From the IMG/VR virus record IMGVR_UViG_2563366806_000004, positions 1-44,644 of that record: a stretch of DNA of 44,644 nucleotides; one strand, written 5' to 3'. A model generated the notes under the pieces. It did no database searches and had not been told where the DNA came from. It was given only the letters and a program-made list of their open reading frames with translations. This DNA is from a virus (taxonomy: Duplodnaviria > Heunggongvirae > Uroviricota > Caudoviricetes). Positions 2,930 through 22,774 of the stretch are shown piece by piece; positions within the stretch are counted from its first letter, which is position 1; the number at the start of each line of letters is the position of its first letter. The position numbers and the translations under genes are program-made.

Positions 2930-2992
2930 TCAGATAAAAGAAATCCCCGCGAGTGCGAGGATTGTTATTCACCTTTGACGGCAAGTTGCAGG

Positions 2993-6105: not shown

Positions 6106-6118
6106 GATTTTCTCCTGA

Positions 6119-6598: not shown

Positions 6599-6607
6599 AT
6601 TCAGCTC

Positions 6608-7789: not shown

Positions 7790-7797
7790 AATTCACC

Positions 7798-7986: not shown

Positions 7987-8096
7987 TTAGACCTCCATTT
8001 TCTGTAGGCTTCGACGGCCTCACGAAACATCTTTTCATCGCCAATAAAAGTGGCGATAGTGAATTTAGTCTGAATAGCCATAAGTGTTTTATCCAT
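7983..8096 (-). CDS. kil: Kil-like host-killing protein
   Basis: MDKTLMAIQTKFTIATFIGDEKMFREAVEAYRKW closely resembles the lambda Kil N-terminus (MDQTLMAIQTKFTIATFIGDEKMFREAV); an in-frame upstream ATG at 8186 would give a 67-aa form. Confidence 0.55.
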   Translation of the reverse strand: MDKTLMAIQTKFTIATFIGDEKMFREAVEAYRKWRSK

Positions 8097-8259
8097 TTTT
8101 TGGAACTCTTGGCTGATTAAGTACGTCGATGAGTCGTTTCCATCCGTCACGTAATTTACGGGTGATTCGTTCAAGTAAAGATTCATTTAGTTGGAAGGCA
8201 CCCATGCGAGCGCCTCCCGCGATTGCGTAAATCATGGGTGGTTCCTTATGTTGGTTTTA

Positions 8260-9228: not shown

Positions 9229-9240
9229 ATATCCTCCATC

Positions 9241-9267
9241 AAAAAAATCGCCCTCACATCGGAGGGC
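9241..9267 (-). terminator. Intrinsic terminator upstream of the coiled-coil gene
   Basis: Stem GCCCTC/GAGGGC with 6-nt loop followed on the minus strand by a run of seven T. Confidence 0.55.
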
Positions 9268-9362
9268 AAAGAAGATTTCCAATAATCAGAACAAGTCGGC
9301 TCCTGTTTAGTTACGAGCGACATTGCTCCGTGTATTCACTCGTTGGAATGAATACACAGTGC

Positions 9363-9575
9363 TTATTCGCGAGCTTTGAGCATGGCATCAGCAATAAAGT
9401 AGGCATCATCTGCTAATTCTTTGTACTGTGGTGAATTCTGTCCACCGCCAAAGGAATGTCCGTCCCATCTGCGCACTATTGCTGCCATAGCCTTAGCAGC
9501 GAAGTAATCACGTAATGTCGCATCACTTGCCATTTCTGGGCGTTTGATATCTGCTTCATAAAACTCGCACATCAT
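9363..9575 (-). CDS. Hypothetical protein
   Basis: 70-aa ORF, stop/start overlap with the upstream gene. Confidence 0.4.
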   Translation of the reverse strand: MMCEFYEADIKRPEMASDATLRDYFAAKAMAAIVRRWDGHSFGGGQNSPQYKELADDAYFIADAMLKARE

Positions 9576-9850
9576 TCACCTCCCAGAGCCTTGCTGATTG
9601 CTGCCTTGGCTCGTTTGTATTCGGTTAACTCTCTGCACCCTTCGTCATGCTCGTAAAGGAAGACAAGCTCTTGCAGTGCTTCAAGCAAATCAGGAGCTGC
9701 TGCTATCAGTAGCGCATCCTCCCTTTCATTTCTTGTTGCTGCTTCAATGTATGTGTCACCAATCGTCACACCATGGAACGTAGTCATCATCTCGTTGACG
9801 TTTCTAACCGTGTACTTCCATTTACCAGGCGTACCCTTAAACTCTTTCAT
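9572..9850 (-). CDS. Hypothetical protein
   Basis: 92 aa from ATG at 9850 with upstream GAGGTGGA; track ORF starts at GTG 9856. Confidence 0.45.
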   Translation of the reverse strand: MKEFKGTPGKWKYTVRNVNEMMTTFHGVTIGDTYIEAATRNEREDALLIAAAPDLLEALQELVFLYEHDEGCRELTEYKRAKAAISKALGGE

Positions 9851-9857
9851 ATCCACC

Positions 9858-9898
9858 TCTGTTGTTTATGCCAAAAATAAAGGCCGACTATGCGGCCT
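9858..9898. repeat. Direct repeat copy 1 (~40 bp, contains terminator hairpin)
   Basis: TCTGTTGTTTATGCCAAAAATAAAGGCCGACTATGCGGCCT, repeated with two differences at 10401..10439. Confidence 0.8.
9871..9898 (-). terminator. Intrinsic terminator after the 156-aa gene
   Basis: Stem AGGCCG/CGGCCT with loop ACTATG, followed on the minus strand by TTATTTTTGG. Confidence 0.55.
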
Positions 9899-10367
9899 AG
9901 TAGAATACCCAATTTTCTGTTTCTTGGTTGTGTCCAAAGTTATATTCAATATCTGGTGTTGATGTATCAATATTCTTCATCCCATCAACAAGAGTTGATA
10001 CAACAGCCAAATCTTGTTTGATTCTCATCAAATGGTATTTCTTCCGGCGCAATAAACTTTCAATGGCAAGTTTCTTCGTCGGGAACGCAAAAGATCTTTC
10101 TGCATTTTTTGCTACTTTCTTAATTGCATATCTATTTCTCCTTTGTTTCCATTCCTGTAACCACTGATTTGGTGCTGGTTTAAAATTAACAATCCAATGC
10201 GCAGGAACCAACCATGCATAATGCTCTGTCTGATGAAAAGCTATATATTGAAGTGCGAATATTTTGATTCCATCTTCTTCAACTGTCGCTTGGAATCTCC
10301 AGAAAACAGGCATTCCATCATGTTCAGTTTCTGATTCAGGAAAAGGTACGCTCCATGATTTTGTCAT
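9897..10367 (-). CDS. Hypothetical protein encoded by an AT-rich cassette
   Basis: 156-aa ORF with AT-rich codon usage unlike neighbours; own leader TTATTTGAGGTGAGATATG and own terminator; no recognisable motif. Confidence 0.55.
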   Translation of the reverse strand: MTKSWSVPFPESETEHDGMPVFWRFQATVEEDGIKIFALQYIAFHQTEHYAWLVPAHWIVNFKPAPNQWLQEWKQRRNRYAIKKVAKNAERSFAFPTKKLAIESLLRRKKYHLMRIKQDLAVVSTLVDGMKNIDTSTPDIEYNFGHNQETENWVFY

Positions 10368-10400
10368 ATCTCACCTCAAATAATTCAGTGCAGTGTTTAT

Positions 10401-10439
10401 TCTGTTGTTTATGCCAAAAGAAGGCCGACTATGCGGCCT
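10401..10439. repeat. Direct repeat copy 2 (contains terminator hairpin)
   Basis: TCTGTTGTTTATGCCAAAAGAAGGCCGACTATGCGGCCT. Confidence 0.8.
10412..10439 (-). terminator. Intrinsic terminator after the membrane-protein gene
   Basis: Same AGGCCG-actatg-CGGCCT hairpin as at 9881..9898, followed on the minus strand by a T-rich tract. Confidence 0.55.
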
Positions 10440-10443
10440 GAAA

Positions 10444-10893
10444 TTACTTAACCAATGATGCTGCATATTCGATAAGGTAAAGATTTGGGGTCAGCCAAAT
10501 TTTTAACCAAGTCATATTGGTTACTACACCAATAATAAAAATCCCCCACAGAGTCAAAACTACAACCAATGGCATGATAAGAAGATTAATATCACCTTTG
10601 CTATCCCAAACCATTGTCGGCCTGTATTTGGGATTTCCTTTCTCCCATGAATATCCTTCATCACCGATTTTACCTGTCTCAACTCTTTGGCACTGCTTCT
10701 TCATAAACCAGAAAACCAGTGGGATTGTTAGAATGGCCATTAATGTTTTAATCAGACTGTCAACCATATTCCATAGCAGCAACTGATGAACAACATCAGG
10801 AATCTGTGCCTGGCTAAATGAAACAGCCGCGTCTATTCCATTACTGGCTTTTTGCAGTAGTTCTACGAGAATCTTGTTTGCTTGTTCTTCCAT
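10444..10893 (-). CDS. Two-pass membrane protein encoded by an AT-rich cassette (possible superinfection-exclusion or abortive-infection function)
   Basis: 149-aa ORF; two hydrophobic helices (LIKTLMAILTIPLVFWFM and INLLIMPLVVVLTLWGIFIIGVV); leader identical to that of the 156-aa gene; position left of N is where lambda and P22 carry sieB. Confidence 0.55.
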   Translation of the reverse strand: MEEQANKILVELLQKASNGIDAAVSFSQAQIPDVVHQLLLWNMVDSLIKTLMAILTIPLVFWFMKKQCQRVETGKIGDEGYSWEKGNPKYRPTMVWDSKGDINLLIMPLVVVLTLWGIFIIGVVTNMTWLKIWLTPNLYLIEYAASLVK

Positions 10894-10947
10894 ATCTCAC
10901 CTCAAATAAGTGGTTTGCTGCGAAAGTAAATACGCTTAAGTTACCTG

Positions 10948-11085
10948 TTATTTATCCCACCAAGTTCCGTATCTATCTATCCAGTTACACCAATCATCGA
11001 CACTCCATTTTGTTGTGTCGCATTTTGGCAACTGGCATGAATATCTACCTTCTTTGTAAAGTCGGCGTTTGACTTTCTTGAGCAT
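10948..11085 (-). CDS. Small Cys-containing hypothetical protein
   Basis: 45-aa ORF MLKKVKRRLYKEGRYSCQLPKCDTTKWSVDDWCNWIDRYGTWWDK directly after the N stop codon with GAGGTGAG Shine-Dalgarno; below the ORF-track length cut-off. Confidence 0.4.
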   Translation of the reverse strand: MLKKVKRRLYKEGRYSCQLPKCDTTKWSVDDWCNWIDRYGTWWDK

Positions 11086-11093
11086 GGCTCACC

Positions 11094-11426
11094 TCAATCG
11101 TAATAAGCTGGAATTGATTTTCCGCGTTGCTTCTGGCGGCCTGAGCAGGTCAACCCCATTTCACTGCGTGGCTTGCTGTACCATGTGCGCTGATTCTTGC
11201 GCTCAATACGCTGCAGGTTGCTTTCAATCTGTTCGTGGTATTCAGCCAGCACCGTAAGGTCTATCGGATTCAGTGCGCTTTCTACTCGTGATTTCGGTTT
11301 GCGATTCAGCGAGAGAATAGGGCGGTTAACTGGTTTTGCGCTTACCCCAACCAACAGGGGATTTGCTGCTTTCCATTGAACCTGTTTCTCTGCGCGACGT
11401 TCGCGGCGGCGTGTTTGTGCATCCAT
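11094..11426 (-). CDS. N: Antitermination protein N
   Basis: 110-aa ORF MDAQTRRRERRAEKQVQWKAANPLLVGVSAKPVNRPILSL, recognised as lambda N; nutL lies upstream. Confidence 0.9.
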   Translation of the reverse strand: MDAQTRRRERRAEKQVQWKAANPLLVGVSAKPVNRPILSLNRKPKSRVESALNPIDLTVLAEYHEQIESNLQRIERKNQRTWYSKPRSEMGLTCSGRQKQRGKSIPAYYD

Positions 11427-11694
11427 CTGGATTCTCCTGTCAGTTAGCTTTGGTGGTGTGGTGGCTGGTAGTCTAGCTCCAGCTTGTTGAGTCTCATTCG
11501 GAGGGGTATAACCGGCACCCCAGCGATTTTTCCATGCGACAACGTGCGCGTTATGGCGGCCTTATCGCCCGCGGCTCCCCATCTCGTCCACGCTATTGCT
11601 AGCGTTGGGAGCGCTTCACCGCTCAACAGTAGGTAAGCACTTGCCAGTGACTAGCTGGCTTCACCACACCCCAAAGCCTTCTGCTTTGAATGCT

Positions 11695-11725
11695 GCCCTT
11701 CTTCAGGGCTAAATTTTTAAGAGCC
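11695..11725 (-). promoter_or_regulatory. nutL: nutL (boxB hairpin GCCCTGAAGAAGGGC plus boxA-like GCTCTTA)
   Basis: Reverse complement of 11691..11724 reads GCTCTTAAAAATTTAGCCCTGAAGAAGGGCAGCA, matching lambda nutL. Confidence 0.8.
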
Positions 11726-11764
11726 TCACCTTCATGGTGGTCAGTGCGTCCTGTTGATGGCTAG

Positions 11765-11828
11765 ATAATCACAAATTGTGTTCGTGCTGTCAACACGAAA
11801 TGTGATTGTTTTTATCACAACACGTGTT
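11765..11828 (-). promoter_or_regulatory. pL promoter with three operator sites (oL)
   Basis: Three 15-bp sites of form ATCACA-N3-YGTGTT at 11768..11782, 11792..11806, 11814..11828; minus-strand -35 TTGACA (11793..11788) and -10 GATTAT (11770..11765), 17-nt spacer. Confidence 0.65.
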
Positions 11829-11865
11829 TTCATTGATTTTTAAGGTAATTTAATTTTCTTTGGGC

Positions 11866-11889
11866 AACAAAAAACCCGCCGAAGCGGGT
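11866..11889 (-). terminator. Intrinsic terminator after the repressor gene
   Basis: Stem ACCCGC/GCGGGT with loop CGAA, followed on the minus strand by TTTTTTGTTG. Confidence 0.6.
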
Positions 11890-11914
11890 TTGATGTTTTT
11901 AAGTGGCGGGTATA

Positions 11915-12556
11915 TCAGGAGAATTTCATCATCATCTGCACTGCTACGCCGATTATCTTGCAGTTGCCGTCGATTGGGATCAACGGATAGGCAGGGTTAA
12001 GCCCTTTCAGGTATTTGTTACCGCCATCAATGATTAGCTTCTTGAACGTGGCTTCATTAGCATCTGTCAGCTTCGCAACTACCAGGCTTCCATTAACGGC
12101 TTCCTTTCCAGTGTCGAACAGAACCAGCATACCCTCAGGAACGCTAAGGCCGGTAGGAGCTGTCATTGAGTCGCCCTGAACCCTGAGCCAGAAGGCGTCA
12201 CCGACAACGTGACAATCTGATTCATACCACTCATCCACTGCCTGAGGGTTGTACGGCTCTACGGCCTCACTCCATGCACCTGCGCTAACCCAGCTAATCA
12301 ACGGAAACTTTTCCCCTGGCTTGTATTGTCCCTGATAGTTGTCGCCAAAAAGCAGTTCTGCCGGAGCGACGCCCAAAGCTTTAGCTATTACCTCTGCGTC
12401 ATCAACACTAACGCTTCTGGTTCCTGATTCATAGTTGCCGATCCGAGATTGTGAAGCCCAGCCGCAAAGCTCCGCCAGAGCCTTCTGTGAAAGCCCTTTA
12501 TCTTCCCGTAATCGCTTGATACGCGCGGCGATAGTTTCTGTTCTGTTCATGCGCAT
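11915..12556 (-). CDS. cI: CI-like prophage repressor (XRE-type HTH plus S24 LexA-like autopeptidase domain)
   Basis: 213-aa ORF; N-terminal HTH (LSQKALAELCGWASQSRIGNYESG); Ala-Gly cleavage site (SAGAW); GDSM serine motif and downstream Lys; flanked by oL and oR; not lambda cI. Confidence 0.8.
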   Translation of the reverse strand: MRMNRTETIAARIKRLREDKGLSQKALAELCGWASQSRIGNYESGTRSVSVDDAEVIAKALGVAPAELLFGDNYQGQYKPGEKFPLISWVSAGAWSEAVEPYNPQAVDEWYESDCHVVGDAFWLRVQGDSMTAPTGLSVPEGMLVLFDTGKEAVNGSLVVAKLTDANEATFKKLIIDGGNKYLKGLNPAYPLIPIDGNCKIIGVAVQMMMKFS

Positions 12557-12561
12557 TTTAT

Positions 12562-12627
12562 ATCACATTCCGTGGTTTAAGGCTTTACACGATTTGTGTT
12601 GACTATCAATCACAATATGTGTTTAAT
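12562..12627 (+). promoter_or_regulatory. pR promoter with three operator sites (oR)
   Basis: 15-bp sites at 12562..12576, 12586..12600, 12609..12623 matching ATCACA-N3-YGTGTT; -35 TTGACT 12599..12604, -10 TTTAAT 12622..12627. Confidence 0.65.
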
Positions 12628-12660
12628 AAAGACTGAGTGAACTAGCTCTTAAGGAAACCT

Positions 12661-12876
12661 ATGAACAACATTGCCAACGAACGGAAAAAGCTTGGCATCA
12701 CTCAATCTGCGTTAGCAGGCGCGTGTGGCTGGAACCAGTCCCGCTTAGCTAACTACGAGTCAGGTATCCGGACTCCAGATTTAGAGTCGTGCCGTCGCCT
12801 GGTAAAGGCGCTGAATAAATTGGGGAGCAAGACAACGCTAGATGGCTTGTTCCCGCCGGAACACAAAGCCGCTTAA
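12661..12876 (+). CDS. cro: Cro-like HTH regulator
   Basis: 71-aa ORF with XRE-type HTH (LGITQSALAGACGWNQSRLANYESG), first gene rightward of oR, RBS AAGGAAAC. Confidence 0.7.
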   Translation: MNNIANERKKLGITQSALAGACGWNQSRLANYESGIRTPDLESCRRLVKALNKLGSKTTLDGLFPPEHKAA

Positions 12877-12884
12877 GACATTCC

Positions 12885-12916
12885 CGCTCTTACACATCCC
12901 AGCCCTGAAAAAGGGC
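12885..12916 (+). promoter_or_regulatory. nutR: nutR (boxA CGCTCTTA and boxB GCCCTGAAAAAGGGC)
   Basis: boxA at 12885..12892 and boxB hairpin at 12902..12916 match lambda nutR. Confidence 0.8.
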
Positions 12917-12995
12917 ATCAAATTAAACCACACCTATGGTGTATGCATTTATTTGCATACATTCAATCAATTGTTATCTAAGGAAATACTTACAT

Positions 12996-13274
12996 ATGCA
13001 ACTTACAAGTACTCGCAAGAAAGCGAATGCAATTACAAGCAACATCCTGAATCGAATTGCTGTACGTGGTCAGCGAAAGGTTGCCGACGCGTTAGGGATT
13101 AATGAATCGCAAATTTCGCGATGGAAAGACAGCTTCATCCCAAAAATGGGAATGCTTCTGGCTGTTCTTGAATGGGGTGTTGAAGACGAGGAGTTGGCGG
13201 AACTGGCTAAGAAAGTAGCCAGAATGCTGACAAAAGAAAAAGCCCCGAAGAACGGCGAATTCTTCGAGGCCTGA
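12996..13274 (+). CDS. cII: Transcriptional activator CII
   Basis: 92 aa from ATG 12996 with the lambda cII leader TTATCTAAGGAAATACTTACATATG; KVADALGINESQISRWK...PKMGMLLAVLEWGV resembles lambda CII. Confidence 0.8.
   Translation: MQLTSTRKKANAITSNILNRIAVRGQRKVADALGINESQISRWKDSFIPKMGMLLAVLEWGVEDEELAELAKKVARMLTKEKAPKNGEFFEA
13231..13270 (-). terminator. Minus-strand intrinsic terminator overlapping the cII 3' end (oop-RNA-like position)
   Basis: 11-bp stem with one mismatch (GCCCCGAAGAA/TTCTTCGAGGC), 7-nt loop, followed on the minus strand by TTTTTCTTTTG. Confidence 0.45.
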
Positions 13275-13308
13275 TGTAGAAAGACTGGATCAATCCACAG
13301 GAGTAATT

Positions 13309-13953
13309 ATGACATACGAAAATGACAAATTCCAGGTTCTGAAGAGCATGAAGGTGCCAGATGATTTTAAATCAAATGGCTTTGTTTATGTGCTTTCTAA
13401 TGAGTGCATGCCAGGAATTTATAAGATTGGGATGACTAAGCATTCACCAGAAGTTAGGGCTAAAGAAATTTCAGCCTCTACTGGCGTTCCTAAGCCATTT
13501 AAGGTGATAGCAGCCTTTCATTCAAATAATCCCGCATCAGATGAAAAACTCATTCATAAAGCCTTTGCAAAAGAGAGGCTTAGTGATAATCGAGAGTTTT
13601 TCAAGCTTGAAGATAATGAGCTTTCTGAATCTCTAAATGAAATAAGGGCGCTGGTTGGCCCTGAAAGAAATGGCGAGACGGCAGAATACGCAATTTACGA
13701 CTCATTCATTTCTTTTCGCCATGAAAATGAGCTTGATCTTAATGAGGAGCTTATAGAGCAAGGTCTGGGTAGTGTAGTTGGTCATCTTCCTGCGGTGAAA
13801 AATTTCCTTATTCGCGCCGGAATTGATTACGCGAAGCAACTGATAAGCAAATATAACTCATCGATAGTTATTAATACAGATGGCAGTGTGGTGATGGTTA
13901 AGTCTCTTGAAGCCCAATGCTTTGATGCGGAGGTTGGAAATGAGCCTGGCTGA
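13309..13953 (+). CDS. T5orf172 / GIY-YIG-like domain protein (accessory gene between cII and O)
   Basis: 214-aa ORF, RBS CAGGAG; N-terminal NGFVYVLSNECMPGIYKIGMTKHSPEVRAKEIS...PFKVIAAFHSNN...REFFKL resembles the T5orf172 (GIY-YIG-like) domain; AT-rich; 3' end overlaps O start by 14 nt. Confidence 0.6.
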   Translation: MTYENDKFQVLKSMKVPDDFKSNGFVYVLSNECMPGIYKIGMTKHSPEVRAKEISASTGVPKPFKVIAAFHSNNPASDEKLIHKAFAKERLSDNREFFKLEDNELSESLNEIRALVGPERNGETAEYAIYDSFISFRHENELDLNEELIEQGLGSVVGHLPAVKNFLIRAGIDYAKQLISKYNSSIVINTDGSVVMVKSLEAQCFDAEVGNEPG

Positions 13954-14782
13954 AGTATTTTACCTGTCGAAGAGTGAACCTGTTGAACAGGAGCGAAGAG
14001 TGGCTGATATCGATGATGGTTACACCAGATTCGCTAACGAGCTGCTGGAAGCTATCGCAAGTGCTGATTTAACCGCTCGCCAGTTGAAAGTTATGCTGGC
14101 CTACGTCCGGAAAACATATGGATTCAATAAGAAAACAGATCGAATAGCCGATGAGCAAATTGCTCAGTTAACAGGACTGTCAAGGCAGAATGTTAACAAG
14201 GCTAAAAAAGAACTGATTTCAATGAATTGCCTGTTTATGGATGGAAATCAAATCGGTGTAAACAGTGAGGTATCTGCGTGGCAATTCAGCAAGTGTCTCC
14301 AAGTTAGCAACTTTGTCTCGAAGTTAGAGACAAAAAATGTCTCCAAATTAGAGACACTCAATGTCTCGAAGTTAGAGACACACAAAAGACATTCTTTAAA
14401 GACAAAAGAAAATATTAATAAACCCCCTATATCCCCCAAAAAAGTTTCTCAGAAGTTCGACCCGCTAGAAACAGAGTTGCCTGATTGGTTATCAGCAGAA
14501 ACATGGTTGTCGTGGGTTACCTATCGCAAGGAGATAGGTAAGTCGATCAAGTCTAAGCAAAGTGTCACTCAGGCTATCAACGTTCTAAGCAGAAGTCTGG
14601 AGAAGGGATATACACCTGAAGAAATTATAAACCAGAGCATCGCCAGTGGTTGGCAGGGGATTTTTGAACCCAAGACTCCAAAGGGGAAATCTCAACCGAG
14701 GCCGCAGCAGCGAGCTATGCAGGAAAACTTTGCCGCCAAAGATTACGGGCAAACTGAAATGCCTTCATGGGCGCAGGAGTGA
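13940..14782 (+). CDS. O: Replication initiator, lambda O-like (N-terminal iteron-binding domain)
   Basis: 280 aa from ATG 13940 (RBS GGAGG); ERRVADIDDGYTRFANELLEA...LKVMLAYVRKTYGFNK resembles lambda O N-terminus; iterons inside the gene. Confidence 0.75.
   Translation: MSLAEVFYLSKSEPVEQERRVADIDDGYTRFANELLEAIASADLTARQLKVMLAYVRKTYGFNKKTDRIADEQIAQLTGLSRQNVNKAKKELISMNCLFMDGNQIGVNSEVSAWQFSKCLQVSNFVSKLETKNVSKLETLNVSKLETHKRHSLKTKENINKPPISPKKVSQKFDPLETELPDWLSAETWLSWVTYRKEIGKSIKSKQSVTQAINVLSRSLEKGYTPEEIINQSIASGWQGIFEPKTPKGKSQPRPQQRAMQENFAAKDYGQTEMPSWAQE
14294..14380. repeat. ori: Replication origin iterons (four ~19-bp repeats at 20-24 bp spacing)
   Basis: TGTCTCGAAGTTAGAGACA-type repeats at 14294, 14314, 14338, 14362, followed by an A/T-rich tract 14390..14450. 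Confidence 0.75.
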
Positions 14783-14784
14783 AT

Positions 14785-15678
14785 ATGAATACGACAAATG
14801 GTTACAATCTGGCACTGCAAAGGCAACTTGTAGACTCAAAAATCAATGACATTTCTGATCTGAAACAGAAACTTGAGTTTAGCAAAATTGGATCAGCATC
14901 AGATGGAATGTCAGTTACCAGCACAGTGGAAGAGTGCGAGAAACACGGTAAATATACTTCCTATGAGAAATATCTGACCATCTCAGGAAAAAGAATTACT
15001 TCAAGTAAATCTGAGTGCCCACAGTGCCTTGAGGAGAAAATTCGTAAGAAAGAGATTGAACGTGAGCAGGCAGAACAAAGAGCAAGACAATCAAAAATTG
15101 AATATTTGTTGAATTCTCTCAATATTCCAGAGAGGTTCAAAAATTGCACTCTTCAGAATTATGAGCCTGTTAACGATGATGCAAAGCGAGTTCTTAAGGT
15201 ATGCCAGGCATATGCCAGTAAGTGGCCTGAACGCCTTCAGAAAGGTGGCGGACTGGTCATGTGTGGTAAGCCTGGAACTGGAAAGAACCACCTTGCACTG
15301 GCTATCGCTAGGCACGCCATTATCGAGCATCAAAGCTCTGTGATATTTACCACTGCGTTGAAAATTGCCAGAGAGTACAAATCAACATGGTCTAAGGCCG
15401 CAACCAGAACTGAAGAAGAAGTCATTAGGCAATTTACGCATCCTGACTTGTTAATAATCGATGAGGTTGGCGTGCAGTTCGGCAGTGATGCTGAAAAGCT
15501 AATCATGTTCGAAATTATCAACACCAGATATGAATACATGAAGCCAACAATCCTGATTAGTAATCAGAGCAAAGATGAACTTTCGGCATTCATTGGTGAG
15601 CGTGTTATTGACAGGATGAATGATGGCGGCGGATGCACCCTTGCGTTTACATGGGATAGTTACAGGAGCAGATCGTGA
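14785..15678 (+). CDS. DnaC/IstB-like AAA+ helicase loader
   Basis: 297 aa from ATG 14785; Walker A GKPGTGKNHLALAIA and Walker B LLIIDEVG; occupies the position of lambda P. Confidence 0.75.
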   Translation: MNTTNGYNLALQRQLVDSKINDISDLKQKLEFSKIGSASDGMSVTSTVEECEKHGKYTSYEKYLTISGKRITSSKSECPQCLEEKIRKKEIEREQAEQRARQSKIEYLLNSLNIPERFKNCTLQNYEPVNDDAKRVLKVCQAYASKWPERLQKGGGLVMCGKPGTGKNHLALAIARHAIIEHQSSVIFTTALKIAREYKSTWSKAATRTEEEVIRQFTHPDLLIIDEVGVQFGSDAEKLIMFEIINTRYEYMKPTILISNQSKDELSAFIGERVIDRMNDGGGCTLAFTWDSYRSRS

Positions 15679-15965
15679 CTGGAAAAGAAATCATCCTGGA
15701 ATATCTGAAAACTCATGAACAATTCTCCCCACATGAATTAGCTCTGATCACCGGAATACCAAATAACAGAATCGCTCAAGCAGCAAGGCATATGGTGAAA
15801 CAAGGGCATTTGAGTGTTGTTGAGCGTAAGTGGAAGACGGTTATTTATGCGAAACGCAAAGTGAAGAAGGAGCCAATTAAAAGAAATCCAGATGGTACGG
15901 GGTGGGGATGTGCAAATCCAATGACGGCGTTTATTAATAGGGCGCTTATGGAGGTAAGGCAATGA
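15675..15965 (+). CDS. Hypothetical protein with possible winged-helix DNA-binding fold
   Basis: 96-aa ORF with GTG start overlapping upstream stop; ELALITGIPNNRIAQAARHMVKQGHL resembles an HTH. Confidence 0.45.
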   Translation: MTGKEIILEYLKTHEQFSPHELALITGIPNNRIAQAARHMVKQGHLSVVERKWKTVIYAKRKVKKEPIKRNPDGTGWGCANPMTAFINRALMEVRQ

Positions 15966-16231
15966 ATAAAAAACAATTAGCCATTCTCGAAAAGGCATGG
16001 GATGCACAAATATCATGCGCTTTGAAAGAACAGGCACTACCAATAATCCAGACCAAATCGAAAATAGCCAGGCAGTTATGCGATGACGGATTCCTGAACG
16101 AAGTTGAGATTACGCGCCAGATGGTAACGTTCAAAGGGTATGAGATAAATCATCATGGTATAGCGGCGTATTGCTCCCACCTTCCTGATGACGTTGACAT
16201 TGATGAAATGGAAAGGGAGATGAAGCAATGA
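15962..16231 (+). CDS. Hypothetical protein
   Basis: 89-aa ORF, ATGA start overlap with upstream gene. Confidence 0.45.
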   Translation: MNKKQLAILEKAWDAQISCALKEQALPIIQTKSKIARQLCDDGFLNEVEITRQMVTFKGYEINHHGIAAYCSHLPDDVDIDEMEREMKQ

Positions 16232-16256
16232 CCATCTACATCACTGAGCTAATAAC

Positions 16257-16288
16257 AGGCCTGCTGGTAATCGCAGGCCTTTTTATTT
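16257..16288 (+). terminator. Intrinsic terminator in the early-right operon (tR2-like position)
   Basis: 8-bp stem AGGCCTGC/GCAGGCCT with loop TGGTAATC, followed by TTTTATTT. Confidence 0.55.
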
Positions 16289-16317
16289 GGGGGAGAGGGA
16301 ATTGGAGGCTTTAAGAA

Positions 16318-16533
16318 ATGAGTACGATAGCTGAGCTTGTCAGGGCTAATTTTCGTGAAGAGTTGGTGCGTTGGTATCGGTATCGTTCATCGTCCAGTTT
16401 GCCGATTGATGAGTTGTATGAGCATTCACCTGCTGCACGACGCTATCCGCGTGACCGTGTTCTTCGACGGTTGTCCAAACTCAACAATGAGTTTCAGCGC
16501 AACAGAATTATTCGGAGTCTGGATTTAAAGTAA
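16318..16533 (+). CDS. Hypothetical protein
   Basis: 71-aa ORF with RBS GGAGG upstream. Confidence 0.45.
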   Translation: MSTIAELVRANFREELVRWYRYRSSSSLPIDELYEHSPAARRYPRDRVLRRLSKLNNEFQRNRIIRSLDLK

Positions 16534-16543
16534 AGGAGTGAGC

Positions 16544-16750
16544 ATGACAAATCAGCAGCAAATAGAGTTCATCCTTGAGCAGATTCGAAAAATGCGAGAA
16601 AAGAACCAGCCAGACATGATGGAAATATGGAGACGCCAGCAGGAAGAATACCGCAAGCATATTTTTGGTGAGAGAAAACAGGATGACTGGAGCCTATATG
16701 GCTATGGCACCAGGACAAATAAAAACGGATATAGCCTTTACACATATTGA
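16544..16750 (+). CDS. Hypothetical protein
   Basis: 68 aa from ATG 16544 with RBS AAGGAG. Confidence 0.45.
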   Translation: MTNQQQIEFILEQIRKMREKNQPDMMEIWRRQQEEYRKHIFGERKQDDWSLYGYGTRTNKNGYSLYTY

Positions 16751-16758
16751 GGAATTCC

Positions 16759-17169
16759 ATGAAACAGACAATTTTCCTCAGGAGTAAGCAACAACAGCAA
16801 GCCGCAATCACCGCCATCCTCGCAACACCACTCGATAAAGACAAGCCAGTTACCATCCGCATTACTGACTACAAGCGCAACCTTGACCAGAACGCAAAAT
16901 TTCACGCGATGCTGGCGGATATCGCAAGTCAGGTTCAATGGTGCGGCAAATGGTTAAAACCAGAACAATGGAAGGTTTTGTTGATAAGCGGTCATGCAGT
17001 GGCAACAAAGCAGGAAGCTGATGTTTTGCCCGGGCTTGAAGGCGAATACGTCAACATTCGCGAAAGTAGCGCGCAGATGAGCGTGAAGCGCATGGCAAGC
17101 CTGATTGAGTACACGACAGCATGGGCTATTGGTCAGGGTGTCAGATTTACCGACAGGAGGTACGAATGA
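16759..17169 (+). CDS. ninB: NinB-like recombination protein
   Basis: 136 aa from ATG 16759; [39 protein letters not shown] resembles lambda NinB. Confidence 0.7.
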
Positions 17170-17348
17170 GACGACAGCGACGAAGCATCACCGACATCAT
17201 CTGCGAAAACTGCAAATACCTTCCAACGAAACGCTCCAGAAATAAACGCAAGCCAATCCCAAAAGAATCTGACGTAAAAACCTTCAACTACACGGCTCAC
17301 CTGTGGGATATCCGGTGGCTTAGAGAACGTGCGAGGAAAACAAGGTGA
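17166..17348 (+). CDS. ninE: NinE
   Basis: 60-aa [63 protein letters not shown], near-identical to lambda NinE. Confidence 0.8.
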
Positions 17349-17524
17349 TTGACCAAAATCGAAGTTACGAACAAGGAAGTGTCGAGCGAGCTTTAACGTG
17401 CGCTAACTGCGGTCAGAAGCTGCATGTGCTGGAAGTTCACGTGTGTGAGCGTTGTATATATGAATGCTTAAATATGGTGGAACATAATGAGAAATATAAG
17501 CAACATAGACGAATTAAGAAATAA
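17345..17524 (+). pseudogene. ninF: ninF, 5' fragment interrupted by an HNH-gene insertion
   Basis: GTG-start ORF encodes ...ESVERALTCANCGQKLHVLEVHVCE as in lambda NinF, then diverges into AT-rich inserted sequence and stops at 17522..17524. Confidence 0.65.
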
Positions 17525-17993
17525 ATTATCATATGATGATGTTTTAGGTGTACTTAGATGGAAAGTGTCTCCTTCTAATAATGTTAAGGTTGGCAGTGTT
17601 GCTGGTTACATTAGGAGTGATGGTTATAGGATGTTAACTATCGATGGTGTAATTACTTATGCTCACCACGTTATATGGATGATAAATAATGGTGAGATTC
17701 CATTAGGGTATAAAATTGATCATATAAATGGAGTAAGGTCAGATAATAGGCTATCTAATCTTCGATTGGTTACACACCAACAGAATGCACAGAACCAAAA
17801 GAGAAAAATAACAAATTCGTCAGGAGTGACTGGAGTATATTTCAATAAAGAGAGATGTAAGTGGATTGCGAATATATGCGTAGATGGGCGCACCAAATAT
17901 CTTGGAATATTTGCTAGCATCATTGACGCTATTACAGAAAGGAAGAGGGCAGAAAAAGAACTGGGTTTTCATGAAAACCATGGTAGACCATAA
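17487..17993 (+). CDS. HNH homing-endonuclease-like protein inserted in ninF
   Basis: 168-aa ORF; AT-rich; RBS GGTGGA; resembles free-standing HNH homing endonucleases; lambda-like ninF sequence is found on both sides. Confidence 0.65.
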   Translation: MRNISNIDELRNKLSYDDVLGVLRWKVSPSNNVKVGSVAGYIRSDGYRMLTIDGVITYAHHVIWMINNGEIPLGYKIDHINGVRSDNRLSNLRLVTHQQNAQNQKRKITNSSGVTGVYFNKERCKWIANICVDGRTKYLGIFASIIDAITERKRAEKELGFHENHGRP

Positions 17994-18054
17994 CTGCGCA
18001 GAACTGATGAGCGATCCGAATAGCTCAATGTACGAGGAAGAAGACGATGAGTGA
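17980..18054 (+). pseudogene. ninF: ninF, 3' remnant
   Basis: Encodes (MVDHN)CAELMSDPNSSMYEEEDDE matching the lambda NinF C-terminus; out of frame with the 5' fragment. Confidence 0.6.
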
Positions 18055-18556
18055 TGTTAAAGAAAAAGATATCCCCGGCTTTGAGGGTATATATAAAGTA
18101 ACTGAAAATGGAGACATCATTTCATGCCGTAAATCAAAAAAATTATCTCATGGCATTAAACCAGGAGGATATGCATTTGTCGGTCTGTATCCAGGTGGCG
18201 GGAAAAGACCATCATATAAAATGGTTCACAGAATTGTTGCAGAAGTATTTATTGATAACCCAGATGGCAAACCGGAAGTTAATCACAAGGATGGAAATAA
18301 ACTTAATAATAAAGTTGAAAATCTTGAGTGGGTAACGCGAACAGAAAATGCGAAACATGGATTTGATTCCGGATTGCTTGTTCATGGGTTTAATCATCAC
18401 TTCTGCAAACTAACGCCAGAACAAGTGAAATCAATATATAAATCAAAAGGCAAATACAGAGATATAGCCAAAGAATTTGGTGTTTGTGCGCAGACAGTGT
18501 GCAACATAAAAAACAAATCAGCGTACCGACGTTTTTTGGAGGGGATTGATGTTTAG
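18047..18556 (+). CDS. Second HNH homing-endonuclease-like protein
   Basis: 169-aa ORF; GFEGIYKVTENGDIIS N-terminal motif and HKDGNKLNNKVENLEWVTRTEN HNH core; AT-rich. Confidence 0.65.
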   Translation: MSDVKEKDIPGFEGIYKVTENGDIISCRKSKKLSHGIKPGGYAFVGLYPGGGKRPSYKMVHRIVAEVFIDNPDGKPEVNHKDGNKLNNKVENLEWVTRTENAKHGFDSGLLVHGFNHHFCKLTPEQVKSIYKSKGKYRDIAKEFGVCAQTVCNIKNKSAYRRFLEGIDV

Positions 18557-18824
18557 AAGCAAAAAATGGCTTCAGGCAGTCAGGGATATTGAATTTTGCG
18601 TTCTTTGCGGAAGATACGGAGTTCAGGCCGCTCATAGAAATGAAGGGAAGGGGGTTGGGATTAAAGTAGATGATTGCCTTACTGCTGCGCTATGTGTTGA
18701 TTGTCATTCAAGAATTGATAATGGGAGAGATATGAGCAGGGAAGAGCGAAGGGCTGAAATGGATCGGGCCATTGTGCTTACCCTTAAAAAATTGGTTAAC
18801 AATGGGAGGGTGTTTGTCCAATGA
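18546..18824 (+). CDS. DUF1364-like small Cys/His protein (YbcO-like)
   Basis: 92-aa ORF with CVLCG...AAH...CVDCH metal-binding pattern, immediately upstream of rusA as in DLP12-type prophages. Confidence 0.4.
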   Translation: MMFRSKKWLQAVRDIEFCVLCGRYGVQAAHRNEGKGVGIKVDDCLTAALCVDCHSRIDNGRDMSREERRAEMDRAIVLTLKKLVNNGRVFVQ

Positions 18825-19183
18825 ACGAATATCAGTTTGTGCTTCCATACCCGCCGTCGGTGAACACCTACTGGCGAAGACGGGGAAGCCAATACTACAT
18901 CAGCGATAAAGGCCAGAAATACCGAAAAGACGTTCAGCAAATCATCCGCCAACTCAAGTTAGACATTTTCACCAAATCACGACTCCGCATCAAAGTAATC
19001 GCAGACGTTCCAGACTCCCGCCGCCGCGACCTCGATAACATCCTGAAAGGTTTACTCGATTCCCTTATCCACGCAGGATTTGCGGAAGACGACGAGCAAT
19101 TCGATGACATTCGCGTAATTCGTGGTGTGAAAGTACCAGGCGGACGGCTTGGAATAAAAATCACCGAACTGGAGAACGTATGA
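18821..19183 (+). CDS. rusA: Holliday-junction resolvase RusA
   Basis: 120-aa ORF; YPPSVNTYWRR...RRRDLDNILKGLLDSLIHAGF...GGRLGIKITE resembles E. coli RusA. Confidence 0.85.
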   Translation: MNEYQFVLPYPPSVNTYWRRRGSQYYISDKGQKYRKDVQQIIRQLKLDIFTKSRLRIKVIADVPDSRRRDLDNILKGLLDSLIHAGFAEDDEQFDDIRVIRGVKVPGGRLGIKITELENV

Positions 19184-19368
19184 ACGCCACAATTCAAACG
19201 ATACCAGAGCTTCTTATCCAGACACGAGGCAATCAGACCGAAGTGGCAAGGATGCTTTCCTGCGCAAGAGGAACAGTGCTCAAGTACAACCGAGACAGTA
19301 AAGGCGAGCGTCACGTAATAGTTAACGGCGTCCTGAGGGTCAAACAGGGAAAAAGGGGAAGGCCATGA
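19180..19368 (+). CDS. ninH: NinH
   Basis: 62-aa ORF; GNQTEVARMLSCARGTVLKY resembles lambda NinH. Confidence 0.7.
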   Translation: MNATIQTIPELLIQTRGNQTEVARMLSCARGTVLKYNRDSKGERHVIVNGVLRVKQGKRGRP

Positions 19369-19988
19369 GACTCGAAAGCGTAGCTAAATTTCATTCGCCA
19401 AAAAGCCCGATGATGAGCGACTCACCACGGGCCACGGCTTCTGACTCTCTTTCCGGTACTGATGTGATGGCTGCTATGGGGATGGCGCAATCACAAGCCG
19501 GATTCGGTATGGCTGCATTCTGCGGTAAGCACGAACTCAGCCAGAACGACAAACAAAAGGCTATCAACTATCTGATGCAATTTGCACACAAGGTATCGGG
19601 GAAATACCGTGGTGTGGCAAAGCTCGAAGGAAATACTAAGGCAAAGGTACTGCAAGTGCTCGCAACATTCGCTTATGCGGATTATTGCCGTAGTGCCGCG
19701 ACGCCGGGGGCAAGATGCAGAGATTGCCACGGTACAGGCCGTGCGGTTGATATATCAAAAACAGAGCTGTGGGGGAGAGTTGTTGAGAAAGAATGCGGAA
19801 GATGCAAAGGTGTCGGCTATTCAAGAATGCCAGCAAGCGCCGCATATCGCGCTGTGACGATGCTAATACCCAACCTTACCCAACCAACCTGGTCACGCAC
19901 TGTTAAGCCGCTGTATGACGCTCTGGTGGTGCAATGCCACAAGGAAGAGTCAATCGCAGACAACATTTTGAATGCGGTCACACGTTAG
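19365..19988 (+). CDS. Q: Late-gene antiterminator Q (lambda type)
   Basis: 207-aa ORF MRLESVAKFHSPKSPMMSDSPRATASDSLSG..., recognised as essentially lambda Q. Confidence 0.9.
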   Translation: MRLESVAKFHSPKSPMMSDSPRATASDSLSGTDVMAAMGMAQSQAGFGMAAFCGKHELSQNDKQKAINYLMQFAHKVSGKYRGVAKLEGNTKAKVLQVLATFAYADYCRSAATPGARCRDCHGTGRAVDISKTELWGRVVEKECGRCKGVGYSRMPASAAYRAVTMLIPNLTQPTWSRTVKPLYDALVVQCHKEESIADNILNAVTR

Positions 19989-20030
19989 CAGCATGATTGC
20001 CACGGATGGCAACATATTAACGGCATGATA

Positions 20031-20059
20031 TTGACTTATTGAATAAAATTGGGTAAATT
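20031..20059 (+). promoter_or_regulatory. Late promoter pR' with Q-utilisation region
   Basis: TTGACTTATTGAATAAAATTGGGTAAATT matches lambda pR' (-35 TTGACT 20031..20036, -10 TAAATT 20054..20059). Confidence 0.8.
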
Positions 20060-20092
20060 TGACTCAACGATGGGTTAATGCCTTCGTTTCAA

Positions 20093-20120
20093 GCCCCGCG
20101 GATAACACCGTGGGGCTTTT
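20093..20120 (+). terminator. Intrinsic terminator ~30-55 nt downstream of pR' (tR'-like)
   Basis: 9-bp stem GCCCCGCGG/CCGTGGGGC (one G-U pair), loop ATAACA, followed by TTTT. Confidence 0.6.
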
Positions 20121-20163
20121 GCGTTTCTGGAGGTAACGGCGAGGCGCTACCCTCGCCTTAACA

Positions 20164-20580
20164 TTAAGGGAGGGTTTTCATTACGCTATCAATCTCCCTT
20201 CCTTCAAATCTTGAAGTCCAGCCGCAGGAGCCGCAATGGTAAGGAAAGTCATCGAACCCGCTACCGACCTGTTTAAGACAGTTGGGGCAATAAACCGCGC
20301 TGATATACCCACCCGCGGGATTTTTTCTAAAGGCCGCACCCATGTGCTCGACAAACTCATCCTTTGCCCGATAAGCCGCTATTTCCTTCTCAAGTTCTAC
20401 GTTCTTGGCTTTCGCCTCGGCAAGTTCTGCTATGGTGGCAGCATGGGCTTTTTGAAGTACGTCGATCTGCTCTCCAATGAAAGCGATGCGCTCGCGCAGG
20501 ACCTCGTTACTTTGCACAGCAGAAAGCGCGCCGATCCCGTTTTTAAGGGACGCGATAAGTAATCCTACATCCATGGTCAT
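20164..20580 (-). CDS. Hypothetical coiled-coil protein with C-terminal CxxC...CxxC zinc-ribbon motif (antisense accessory gene between pR' and S)
   Basis: 138-aa ORF; start overlaps the stop of an upstream small ORF (ATGA); N-terminal heptad-like helix; C-terminal CPNCLKQVGSGFDDFPYHCGSCGW. Confidence 0.55.
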   Translation of the reverse strand: MTMDVGLLIASLKNGIGALSAVQSNEVLRERIAFIGEQIDVLQKAHAATIAELAEAKAKNVELEKEIAAYRAKDEFVEHMGAAFRKNPAGGYISAVYCPNCLKQVGSGFDDFPYHCGSCGWTSRFEGREIDSVMKTLP

Positions 20581-20714
20581 TCCCTAATTGTCTGTGGAAT
20601 GACCAATTTAGCAATTTCCTTTGTCTGTGGAAAGCAGGGAAACCACGCGCCGGGCGTGGATAAATATCCCGGTATTGAATCGACTGTTGGCTGCCGCTTG
20701 GCGGCCTTTTTCAT
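20577..20714 (-). CDS. Small basic hypothetical protein (translationally coupled to the 138-aa gene; start uncertain)
   Basis: 45 aa from ATG 20714 (MKKAAKRQPTVDSIPGYLSTPGAWFPCFPQTKEIAKLVIPQTIRE); the longer track ORF runs antisense into the holin gene. Confidence 0.35.
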   Translation of the reverse strand: MKKAAKRQPTVDSIPGYLSTPGAWFPCFPQTKEIAKLVIPQTIRE

Positions 20715-20829
20715 TTCAGGCTCACGGGAATCATCCGCTACGTGCTTTGTTGATAAATCCAGCCCGTGAAGCCTGACCCTTTTCAAACACACACACACAG
20801 CGCCATCCGAAAAATCGGAGGTGAGGCCT

Positions 20830-21153
20830 ATGAAAATGCCATACAAACAAGATTTCATCGCTGCGCTACTTGCCGCCAAGGAGCAGGGTATTGGTGCAAT
20901 GCTGGCTTTTATCATGGCGTATCTGCGTGGTCGCTATAACGGCGGCGCGGTAACAAAAACGCTAATTGATGCGCTGATGTGCGCGATGATTGCCTGGTTC
21001 GTTCGTGACCTTCTGGACTTTATCGGCCTGAGCAGCAACCTCGCCTACATAGCCAGCGTCTTTATTGGATACATCGGCACCGATTCGATCGGCAATCTTA
21101 TTAAAAAACTTGCAGCAAAAAAGGCGGGAGTTGACGATGCAAACCAGTCCTGA
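20830..21153 (+). CDS. S: Holin S (lambda class I, dual-start MKM motif)
   Basis: 107 aa from ATG 20830; [27 protein letters not shown]... resembles lambda S. Confidence 0.9.
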
Positions 21154-21586
21154 CGGAATTGCTCTGATAAAAAAATTTGAAGGTTGTCGGCTGACTGCTT
21201 ACCCCGACCCCGGAACGGGAGATGCGCCGTGGACCATCGGCTATGGCTGGACCCATCCGGTTGACGGAAAGCCAGTAAAGCGCGGTATGACTATCGACCA
21301 GCAAACCGCTGACAGGCTTCTGAAAACAGGGCTTGTTGGTTATGAGAATGACGTGCTGAAAGTTGTCAGGGTGAAGCTGACACAAGGCCAGTTCGACGCA
21401 CTGGTGTCGTTCGCTTACAACGTTGGGTCGCGTGCTCTTTCCACATCTACACTGCTGAAAAAGCTGAATGCTGGCGATATAAAAGGCGCGGCAGATGAAT
21501 TTCTGCGCTGGAATAAATCAGGCGGAAAGGTGATGCCGGGGCTCACGAATCGCCGCAAGGCAGAGCGAGCTCTGTTCCTGTCATGA
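21137..21586 (+). CDS. Endolysin, T4/P22-type lysozyme (glycoside hydrolase family 24)
   Basis: 149 aa from ATG 21137 overlapping the S stop; [33 protein letters not shown] and C-terminal [12 protein letters not shown] resemble P22 gp19 lysozyme, not lambda R. Confidence 0.85.
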
Positions 21587-22050
21587 TTAGCGCACTGGTT
21601 AAGCGTTACTGGCTGCAGTTGCTGGTGCTGGCGTTAATCGGCGCACTGGCTTTCTTCGTGAACCACTACCGCGACAACGCCATCACTTACAGAGACCAGC
21701 GCGATAAGGCCACTGAGAAACTCCTCCTGGCGACCGCCACCATTAAAGACATGCAGACCCGCCAGCGTGATGTCGCTGCACTGGATGCCAAATACACCGG
21801 AGAACTGGCTGATGCGAAAGAAACCATTGAGCGTCTGCATAGCGATGTCATTGCTGGCCGTAAGCGGCTGCAAGTCGCCGCCACCTGTGCAAAGTCAACG
21901 ACCGGAGCCAGCAGCATGGGCGATGGAGAAAGCCCAAGACTTACAGCAGATGCTGAACTCAATTATTACCGTCTACGAAGTGGAATCGACAAGATAACCG
22001 CGCAGGTTAACTACCTGCAGGAATACATCAGGACGCAATGCCTGAAATAA
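21583..22050 (+). CDS. Rz: i-spanin Rz
   Basis: 155-aa ORF; N-terminal transmembrane helix ([16 protein letters not shown]) and coiled-coil periplasmic domain; follows endolysin. Confidence 0.8.
21812..21997 (+). CDS. Rz1: o-spanin Rz1 (lipoprotein embedded in Rz in the +1 frame)
   Basis: 61 aa from ATG 21812: [20 protein letters not shown] lipobox followed by proline-rich segment; entirely within Rz. Confidence 0.7.
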
Positions 22051-22083
22051 TTTTTTTGCAAATCACAAAGTCAATTTAATGAG

Positions 22084-22106
22084 CCTCGCGATGCGGGGCT
22101 TTTTTT
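22084..22106 (+). terminator. Putative intrinsic terminator after the lysis cassette
   Basis: Hairpin CCTCGC-gat-GCGGGG followed by CTTTTTTT. Confidence 0.45.
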
Positions 22107-22255
22107 ACATCTGAATTTCACAGCGCATCTCACGCGCATATTACATCACCCGAGCCTTTCAGAAAGTTGAGCCTGAGAACTGCCGTATATGGTGGCGACC
22201 ATCTCGGGGCGGCTTTTCTGTGAGACAGGCTCACTTTCTAAAAGGTAAAGACGCT

Positions 22256-22774
22256 ATGAATAATCCGTCAGTTATTCCGGCCTTCGACTTCCGCGAAATG
22301 GTCACGACCCTCGACAACAAGATAATCACCACATCACTCAAGGTGGCGGATTACTTTGGCAAGCGACACAAAGACGTTTTGCGTGCCATACGTAACCTGA
22401 AATGCTCCGATGACTTCACCCAGCGCAATTTTGCGCCCATTGATTTCATTGATAAAAATGGCGATGTTCAGCCTATGTATAACATCACCCGCGACGGATG
22501 CATGATGCTAGTGATGGGATTCACTGGCAAAACAGCTGCCGCAGTGAAGGAGTGTTACATCAATGCCTTCAACTGGATGGCCGAGCAGCTAAACCGGCGC
22601 ATGGCGATGGGTGAAGAATTGCAGCATCGCTACGCCATCAAAGAAACGCGCTCAAAGCTGAAAGGCACGATCGGAAGCCGTTTGATGAACGAGCGGAAGA
22701 AAGAGAAGCGCGTCCTGGAGCTCGAACATGAGCACATCATGCAGGTAACGCAGCCGGAATTACTTATTGGCTGA
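22256..22774 (+). CDS. Rha-family phage regulatory protein
   Basis: 172 aa from ATG 22256; ITTSLKVADYFGKRHKDVLRAIRNL resembles the Rha family N-terminus. Confidence 0.65.
   Translation: MNNPSVIPAFDFREMVTTLDNKIITTSLKVADYFGKRHKDVLRAIRNLKCSDDFTQRNFAPIDFIDKNGDVQPMYNITRDGCMMLVMGFTGKTAAAVKECYINAFNWMAEQLNRRMAMGEELQHRYAIKETRSKLKGTIGSRLMNERKKEKRVLELEHEHIMQVTQPELLIG

Follow-up and report, generated by a model that had tools for sequence, protein, structure and literature searches.

Genes split by free-standing endonuclease genes have been described in several bacteriophages: mobE interrupts nrdA in Aeromonas phage Aeh1 and mobA lies between genes 39 and 60 in T4 (PMC2988022; PMC3045599), and an endonuclease gene is likewise found in nrdD of Felix O1-like phages (PMC4837284). 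In these cases, an HNH-family open reading frame (ORF) without an accompanying intron or intein lies inside a gene that is contiguous in relatives, leaving two collinear pieces, and the same organization is seen at the locus considered here. We analyzed a 44,644-nucleotide stretch of a virus of the class Caudoviricetes (IMG/VR record IMGVR_UViG_2563366806_000004; the whole stretch is called the window below), in which the small nin-region gene ninF is split by a gene for an HNH endonuclease (HNH1), with a second HNH gene (HNH2) immediately downstream. A first-pass annotation, made from the letters alone, had read this arrangement as a free-standing homing endonuclease gene inserted into a conserved phage gene, and alignment with intact ninF genes bears out the insertion to the base. 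The 539-bp insertion, its junctions, and the splitting of ninF are near-certain. That the insertion, placed between codons 37 and 38 of ninF, is a free-standing homing endonuclease gene that is active now or was so until recently is in our assessment highly probable from comparative sequence data, and a homing mechanism is well supported by the population evidence.

The junctions were mapped by aligning the window with the intact ninF genes of phages Dewey, Louie, and HK620. Where the intact gene reads GTGTGTGAGCACTG / CTGCGCAGAACTG, the window reads GTGTGTGAGCGTTG / TATATATG...GACCATAA / CTGCGCAGAACTG, the part between the slashes being an AT-rich insertion of 539 bp at 17455-17993 (or equally, given a one-base ambiguity, at 17456-17994; all features discussed are on the + strand). 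The insertion point falls after nucleotide 110/111 of ninF, between Cys37 and Cys38 of NinF, and the two flanks (110 and 61 nt) add up to 171 nt, the size of the intact gene (56 codons). The 5' part (17345-17454; codons 1-36 plus two bases) begins with the GTG at 17345, matches intact ninF to 17449/17454 (...VHVCE, as the first-pass annotation had it), and is recognized by the Pfam NinF family (PF05810; E 6e-12, 45.7 bits against a cut-off of 27.5). The 3' part (nucleotides 111-171, C38 AELMSDPNSSMYEEEDDE*) resumes with CTGCGCAGAACTG... at 17994, one base before the approximate position first given, and runs to the stop at 18054 (..CAELMSDPNSSMYEEEDDE); it lies in a different frame from the 5' part because 539 equals 3 x 179 + 2. 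The match is exact on both sides of the insert, which refutes the notion that the similarity to ninF is coincidental. The inserted unit consists of a 32-nt leader, carrying GGTGG about 10 nt 5' of the HNH1 ATG, and the 168-codon endonuclease ORF (17487-17993), whose TAA directly precedes the resumption of ninF. Two substitutions, AC->GT at 17451-17452 (His36->Arg), and possibly a TGC->TGT change lie immediately to the left of the junction.

This compactness bears directly on the nature of the insertion. HNH genes are often found in phage introns, which in turn often occupy conserved genes, and the closest solved structure to HNH1, I-HmuI, is itself intron-encoded; were the insertion a self-splicing intron of group I or II, or an intein, with the endonuclease inside it, ninF would still be made intact. 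Yet the insertion outside the ORF amounts to just 32 nt at the 5' end and nothing at the 3' end, no Rfam family matches anywhere in 17100-18700 even at E<=5, and local folding is no better than that of shuffled sequences. An intein is opposed by the 539-nt length, which shifts the frame, by a stop in the ninF frame at 17522, and by the lack of a Hint domain in Pfam searches. We therefore regard splicing of either kind as extremely improbable. As for an insertion sequence or transposon, the HNH gene is the sole ORF of the insert, with no transposase, and its junctions show no target duplication; inverted repeats near its ends reach at best 13 nt at 77%, and an 8-nt repeat (TAACTGCG) is at chance level. 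A hairpin sequestering the ribosome-binding site at the HNH1 start was also considered and set aside, being not better than shuffles (z -1.8 in the window and +0.6 in an 84%-identical relative, L154, described below), and no promoter or terminator belonging to the insertion itself was found above shuffle expectation.

The protein encoded by the insert points to a DNA-cleaving function. HNH1 matches Pfam HNH_3 with 70.1 bits (cut-off 24.8; E 1.2e-19) and belongs to PHROG 99 (phrog_99, E 1.9e-69). Its residues D78-H79...N87...N100 align with the active site of I-HmuI and are conserved in an alignment with 58 homologues, even though overall sequence similarity to I-HmuI is weak (E 0.07). In Foldseek searches with an AlphaFold (AF2) model of HNH1 (mean predicted local distance difference test score, pLDDT, 90.9), the best match is I-HmuI (1u3e; prob 1.0), and residues ~112-160, a C-terminal three-stranded sheet plus helix, match the AP2 domains of plant and Plasmodium proteins (1gcc, 7et4; prob ~0.99). 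The domains proposed in the first-pass annotation were thus recovered in part: HNH_3 in both endonucleases and NUMOD4 in HNH2 were detected by Pfam, and AP2 in HNH1 stayed below the Pfam threshold, an AP2 match being recorded by Pfam for several HNH1 homologues. HNH1 is accordingly best described as an I-HmuI-like HNH_3 catalytic core joined to a modeled AP2-like DNA-binding domain, with predicted cleavage activity. The family is large in phages, with 3802 matching records, all at <60% identity, and the relatives of HNH1 form one tight cluster of 369 sequences (>=98%), followed by a sequence at 84% and a remainder at <=51%. The nearest relatives in sequenced phages come from Klebsiella siphophages (~50% identity), and none of them lies inside ninF; in phages of Klebsiella and Citrobacter, relatives at this level of identity are free-standing genes with unrelated neighbors. 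HNH1 is also present in Escherichia albertii among public protein records, and partial copies are named 'serine/threonine protein phosphatase, partial' in NCBI.

The distribution of the insert is that of a sporadic element in a gene that is mostly uninterrupted. We scanned 5426 complete Escherichia coli genomes, calling the insert at >=98% identity and >=80% coverage, and found it in 44, including the enteropathogenic strain E2348/69, where the NCBI annotation pipeline PGAP marks two NinF pieces around the HNH gene. The insert is missing from 1650 of the 1694 ninF-carrying genomes (a frequency of 2.6%), from ~94% of the ninF loci in the less biased IMG/VR sample (present in 5/79), and from all 421 phage records with ninF-region matches; hence, the intervening sequence is not native to the gene in all relatives. 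A further 28 IMG/VR loci and 4 other metagenome loci carry it. In the window and in each of the 27 IMG/VR loci covering the complete insert, the two junctions are the same; two truncated IMG/VR loci show one junction each. The AC->GT substitutions at 17451-17452 are constant companions of the insert, present in 28/28 insert-bearing loci and in 0/123 empty sites of the first scan. The surroundings, in contrast, vary: the insert occurs on lambda-type and P22-type (MLSPSQSLQYQ...) ninF alleles, and on both the SMY and SMH C-terminal alleles, and it is followed by any of at least six different genes (ninG, roi, HNH2, and three others). Its nucleotide diversity (pi) is 0.005, 4-10 times below that of the flanks, where insert-bearing and empty alleles are alike (left flank, 0.050 versus 0.053; right flank, 0.020 versus 0.022). 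This makes the insert much younger than the polymorphism that surrounds it.

Direct traces of gain or loss are offered by four near-isogenic pairs of insert-bearing and empty loci, which differ by the insert and 2-12 adjacent nucleotides. One such pair (L164 with the insert, L181 without) is identical over ~2 kb on each side save for one distant mismatch; the differences are TGC TCC GAT TGC -> TGT GAG CGT TGT plus the insert. In a second pair (L015 and L189), both members carry a rare variant 7 nt from the AC->GT substitutions, and these substitutions and the insert are the only differences. Exchange end-points this close to a 539-bp heterology are as predicted by break-initiated gene conversion and would imply cleavage next to the insertion site. 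The sequence of events that would produce this pattern can be outlined as follows. By established lambda biology, HNH1 would be transcribed with the nin region from pR in lytic growth; it would recognize and nick or cut insert-free ninF in a co-infecting phage or co-induced prophage. The cut would fall near the insertion point, given how short the transferred flank is. Repair of the break would use the insert-bearing copy as template, through recombination functions of the phage (Red/Erf/RecT, NinB, RusA/Rap) or of the host, copying the gene and its neighboring bases (TGT GAG CGT TGT) into the recipient and sometimes exchanging flanking modules. The insertion would destroy its own target. The residual 59-residue NinF would keep its four-cysteine zinc ribbon, with its acidic tail swapped for 22 insert-encoded residues, and would be tolerated because the nin region is dispensable, as it is in lambda (nin5).

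The state of the ORF speaks to whether the element is alive. In favor of a degenerate or inactive relic, drifting in the late stage of a homing cycle, one of the 28 copies is frameshifted (L031), and in an 84%-identical relative (L154) the right junction is short of 31 nt and the stop codon is gone. Nonetheless, the other 27 copies keep the ORF at its full length, with the catalytic D-H...N...N residues preserved, and the segregating sites comprise 13 synonymous and 8 non-synonymous changes against a neutral prediction of ~1:3, which indicates purifying selection on the HNH1 ORF. With the near-isogenic pairs also pointing to recent movement, we consider a relic very unlikely. The relative L154, a 909-nt contig (Logan SRR25288770), is informative in its own right. 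Its endonuclease shares the left junction of the window (TGT/ATATATG) in a divergent ninF (IHVCEKC...), and a recognizable ninF tail (ADPNGQMLEKDDG*) follows 3' of the endonuclease, then ybcO; with the right junction 31 nt shorter, the endonuclease ORF runs 8 codons further into the ninF tail. Its presence at the same site in a divergent ninF implies that more than a single recent event links this endonuclease lineage to ninF. We also considered whether the 3' end of the insert in the window (GGTAGACCATAAC), which resembles the corresponding L154 sequence GGCAGATCCCAAC, might be the vestige of a foreign ninF; this was rejected because endonucleases of this family end in a conserved GR(P/S), and L154 is more simply a 31-nt deletion derivative.

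Several observations weigh against the homing interpretation, and some of them would suit an element that is merely carried along. In that case, a single illegitimate entry into ninF would have been shuffled later by general lambdoid homologous recombination, the ORF having another role, such as exclusion or defense, or none. The same haplotype shuffling and left/right discordance occur in empty alleles, which are equally recombined around the site with all four gametes present, and an enrichment of breakpoints at the insert is unsupported, the discordance between left and right nearest neighbors being 0.64 for insert-bearing and 0.65 for empty alleles. The lack of a population-level breakpoint signal is likely explained by the fact that the 3' end of ninF is a module boundary anyway; it also means that ordinary lambdoid recombination could account for part of the spread of the insert. 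Its frequency is low, it is absent from all 50,697 sequenced phage records, and a scan of one-genome-per-species representatives for close relatives yielded nothing relevant, so the HNH1 element is not sweeping. Moreover, insert-bearing genomes hold further ninF copies (3-6 places per record), the AP2 match of HNH1 is below threshold in Pfam (E 0.008-0.026), and a literature search found no report that connects ninF with an HNH or homing endonuclease. Passive carriage does not, however, readily explain why the diversity of the insert drops 4-10 times below that of flanks only tens of nucleotides away, or why the exchange end-points of the near-isogenic pairs lie 2-12 nt from the heterology, as expected of break-initiated conversion and not of random crossovers. 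Purifying selection on the nuclease ORF, the 84%-identical relative at the same site in a divergent ninF, and an architecture matching that of characterized homing enzymes likewise oppose it. On balance, passive carriage appears unlikely, if distinctly less so than a relic, and the homing reading is preferred.

The consequences for ninF itself are visible in the reading frames. The 5' part, which has its native start, continues into the insert as a chimeric 59-residue ORF (17345-17524) composed of NinF residues 1-37 and a 22-residue tail, IYECLNMVEHNEKYKQHRRIKK; it retains the four zinc-ribbon cysteines in both CxxC pairs (C19, C22, C34, and C37). This exact protein is found in public databases under the plain name 'protein NinF', as is a 61-residue truncated chimera from Salmonella enterica. 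The 3' piece (20 codons) has in-frame ATGs at 17971, 17980, and 18006, none of which is preceded by a visible Shine-Dalgarno sequence, and a longer overlapping ORF (17884-18054) is not conserved in L154. Because the 3' piece is without an evident ribosome-binding site, ninF is probably truncated rather than kept in pieces. The first two of these ATGs are supplied by the conserved HENHG codons of the endonuclease, read in the frame of the ninF 3' part, and a peptide MKTMVDHNCAELMSDPNSSMYEEEDDE is possible there, the equivalent in L154 being MKTMADPNGQMLEKDDG. In the same region, 16 bp close to the HNH1 terminus (GGTTTTCATGAAAACC; 17964-17979) form a perfect palindrome, which encodes the family-invariant GFHEN motif and is identical in the relative with 84% identity; it may be just a matter of codon choice, or a DNA or RNA element.

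The window itself appears as a recent recombinant at this locus. To the left of the insert, it equals phage CurroJimenez_Bas106 with 0/1852 mismatches (15600-17451); to the right, it equals phage Dewey with 0/1042 mismatches (17994-19035). Dewey shows 12 mismatches in 285 nt on the left flank, and the downstream gene in CurroJimenez is ninG. The insert is thus located exactly at a fresh mosaic joint. Variation in empty sites is also concentrated next to the insertion point. Among 74 empty alleles from IMG/VR, the codons between Cys34 and Cys37 have per-site diversities of 0.455 and 0.37, while all other ninF codons are at <=0.18; these hypervariable codons (17444-17452) sit immediately 5' of the insertion point, 2-8 nt away. 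The variants are multi-nucleotide patches (GAGCAC, TCCGAT, GAAGCG, and GAGCGC among them; EH, SD, EA, EY, and ER among the residue pairs) that recur on different ninF backgrounds, with CEHCC at ~51% and CSDCC at ~28% of sites, followed by CEACC, CEYCC, and others. Lambda-type and P22-type alleles alike can have CSDCC, and the L164/L181 pair shows that such a background can take part in a gain or loss event. The empty site of CurroJimenez (L172, 1854-1880), GAG CGC TGC TGT ACA ... AGT (CERCCTELMS), has four substitutions in 26 nt; no empty site with CGN at codon 36 was present in the IMG/VR scan, and the CurroJimenez-type site (CERCCT) is essentially absent from the 5426 E. coli genomes. These features allow a more ambitious proposal, in which the endonuclease would act as a break-making engine that contributes to mosaic joints in the nin region of lambdoid phages, would drive an arms race at its target site, and would leave a two-piece NinF still made. 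The window would then be a fresh product, with CurroJimenez-type sequence on the left and Dewey-type sequence on the right joined at the insert, and translation from the in-frame ATGs within the HENHG codons may still supply the short acidic tail of NinF. Taken jointly, these three elements make up a proposal that we hold only tentatively and think more doubtful than otherwise.

The base composition of the surrounding region sets the two endonuclease genes apart, with G+C contents of 26-42% over both HNH genes versus ~47-54% in ninB-ninE and rusA-Q (100-nt windows). Upstream of ninF lie ninB (16747-17169; Pfam) and its immediate neighbor ninE (17166-17348; Pfam NinE, E 3e-43). Downstream, HNH2 (18047-18556; 169 residues) overlaps the ninF stop by 8 nt and, in agreement with the first-pass annotation, is a second AT-rich HNH gene directly 3' of the split ninF. 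It has a Pfam NUMOD4 match of 29.2 bits (cut-off 23.4) and an HNH_3 match of 42.2 bits, and aligns with I-HmuI (PDB 1u3e) at E 9e-19 over residues 6-121. It is a second, unrelated endonuclease of the homing type, with predicted activity. HNH2 is found in 34 of the 5426 E. coli genomes and adjoins ninF in 24/25 among the matches listed, usually with a hypothetical gene on its other side; in Dewey and Louie, this is a gene for a 92-residue protein. In the window, that gene (18546-18824) is identical to its counterpart in Dewey and has one mismatch to that in Louie, and in the window, Dewey, and Louie alike, the three records covered, it stands directly 3' of HNH2. The block made of HNH2 and this gene replaces roi and hkbD (HK620) or a small ORF and a DUF1364 gene (mEp043), homology with mEp043 and HK620 ending at the ninF stop and resuming exactly at the rusA ATG. 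HNH2 is thus a free-standing endonuclease gene in a variable slot between ninF and rusA, not an insertion into a gene. HNH1 and HNH2 occur together in none of the complete E. coli genomes and in one IMG/VR contig (L013).

The downstream neighbors had initially been named as a DUF1364-like gene and rusA. The latter stands (18821-19183; Pfam RusA, E 1e-16); as for the DUF1364 label, the 92-residue protein, a putative nuclease of YbcO/DUF968/DUF1364-like type, has in Pfam only sub-threshold DUF968/YbcO matches and falls in PHROGs phrog_131, 'HNH endonuclease'. It is a strongly divergent allele of the slot occupied by HK97 gp66 and HK620 HkbD (DUF1364, 'HNH endonuclease'). Next come ninH (19180-19368), named by position as in HK620, and a lambda-type Q (19365-19988), named from the Dewey and HK620 annotation. 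In phage Louie (L002, 1689-2096), an additional 135-residue ORF lies between ninE and a P22-type ninF, which is another variable slot, directly upstream of ninF. The whole window is a mosaic lambdoid genome: its early region (2698-22265) has ~99% identity to the E. coli phage CurroJimenez_Bas106 in aligned blocks, and its late region (~20.8-44.6 kb), with vB_EcoM-type structural genes, has 96% identity to Citrobacter phage Omnitron.

Homing endonuclease genes are well studied in lytic phages such as T4, SPO1, and ICP1, but much less so in temperate lambdoid phages, whose mosaicism is usually ascribed to general or Red-type recombination. The ninF locus offers a small natural system, well suited to genetic work, in the lambda-type phages that infect E. 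coli; otherwise identical partners with and without the insert exist for it in culture collections or genomes. Homing, co-conversion, and the exchange of modules induced by a break could be measured with it, both between phages that infect a cell together and between prophages resident in the same host. More immediately, the annotation of many records can be corrected: the 59-residue 'protein NinF' of E. coli and Salmonella is a truncated chimera, and some fragments of the endonuclease are mis-named as a serine/threonine protein phosphatase.

When set beside the known cases, the ninF insertion shows both shared and distinctive features. As here, sequence of the element is appended to the host gene fragments in Aeh1. 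On the other hand, the Aeh1, T4, and Felix O1-like examples come from lytic phages, while the present one resides in a temperate lambdoid phage or prophage, and its target is tiny (56 codons), of unassigned function, and dispensable. The T4 seg and mob enzymes cut hundreds of base pairs away (PMC2988022), in contrast to the cleavage beside the insertion that the short transferred flanks of ninF would imply, in which HNH1 would resemble intron-encoded enzymes. Among the latter, I-HmuI (PDB 1U3E), the nicking HNH homing endonuclease encoded by an intron of Bacillus phage SPO1, is comparable to HNH2 in having a NUMOD4-type N-terminal sheet and an HNH core, but neither HNH1 nor HNH2 is in an intron, and where I-HmuI has a C-terminal helix-turn-helix, HNH1 has an AP2-like domain. 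The two-domain architecture of HNH1 is instead that of the HNH-AP2 endonucleases (PHROG 99) known from phages and cyanobacteria, among them those of the Xanthomonas phages Xp10, OP1, and Xop411 (PMC2248197). Nuclease genes have also been reported at the boundaries of genetic exchange, as 'HEG islands' (homing endonuclease gene islands; Barth, Dunham & Seed 2023, PMC10448857). The window agrees with these in having its endonuclease gene exactly where a block with 100% identity to one contemporary phage meets a block with 100% identity to another, but it is a single case, and insert-bearing alleles across the sample are no more discordant than empty ones. Thus, both the class of mechanism and the gene-splitting outcome are already known, and no concept is changed by this locus. 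What is particular to ninF is the combination of a temperate lambdoid setting, a tiny dispensable target, short conversion tracts of the kind seen with introns, and natural isogenic partners.

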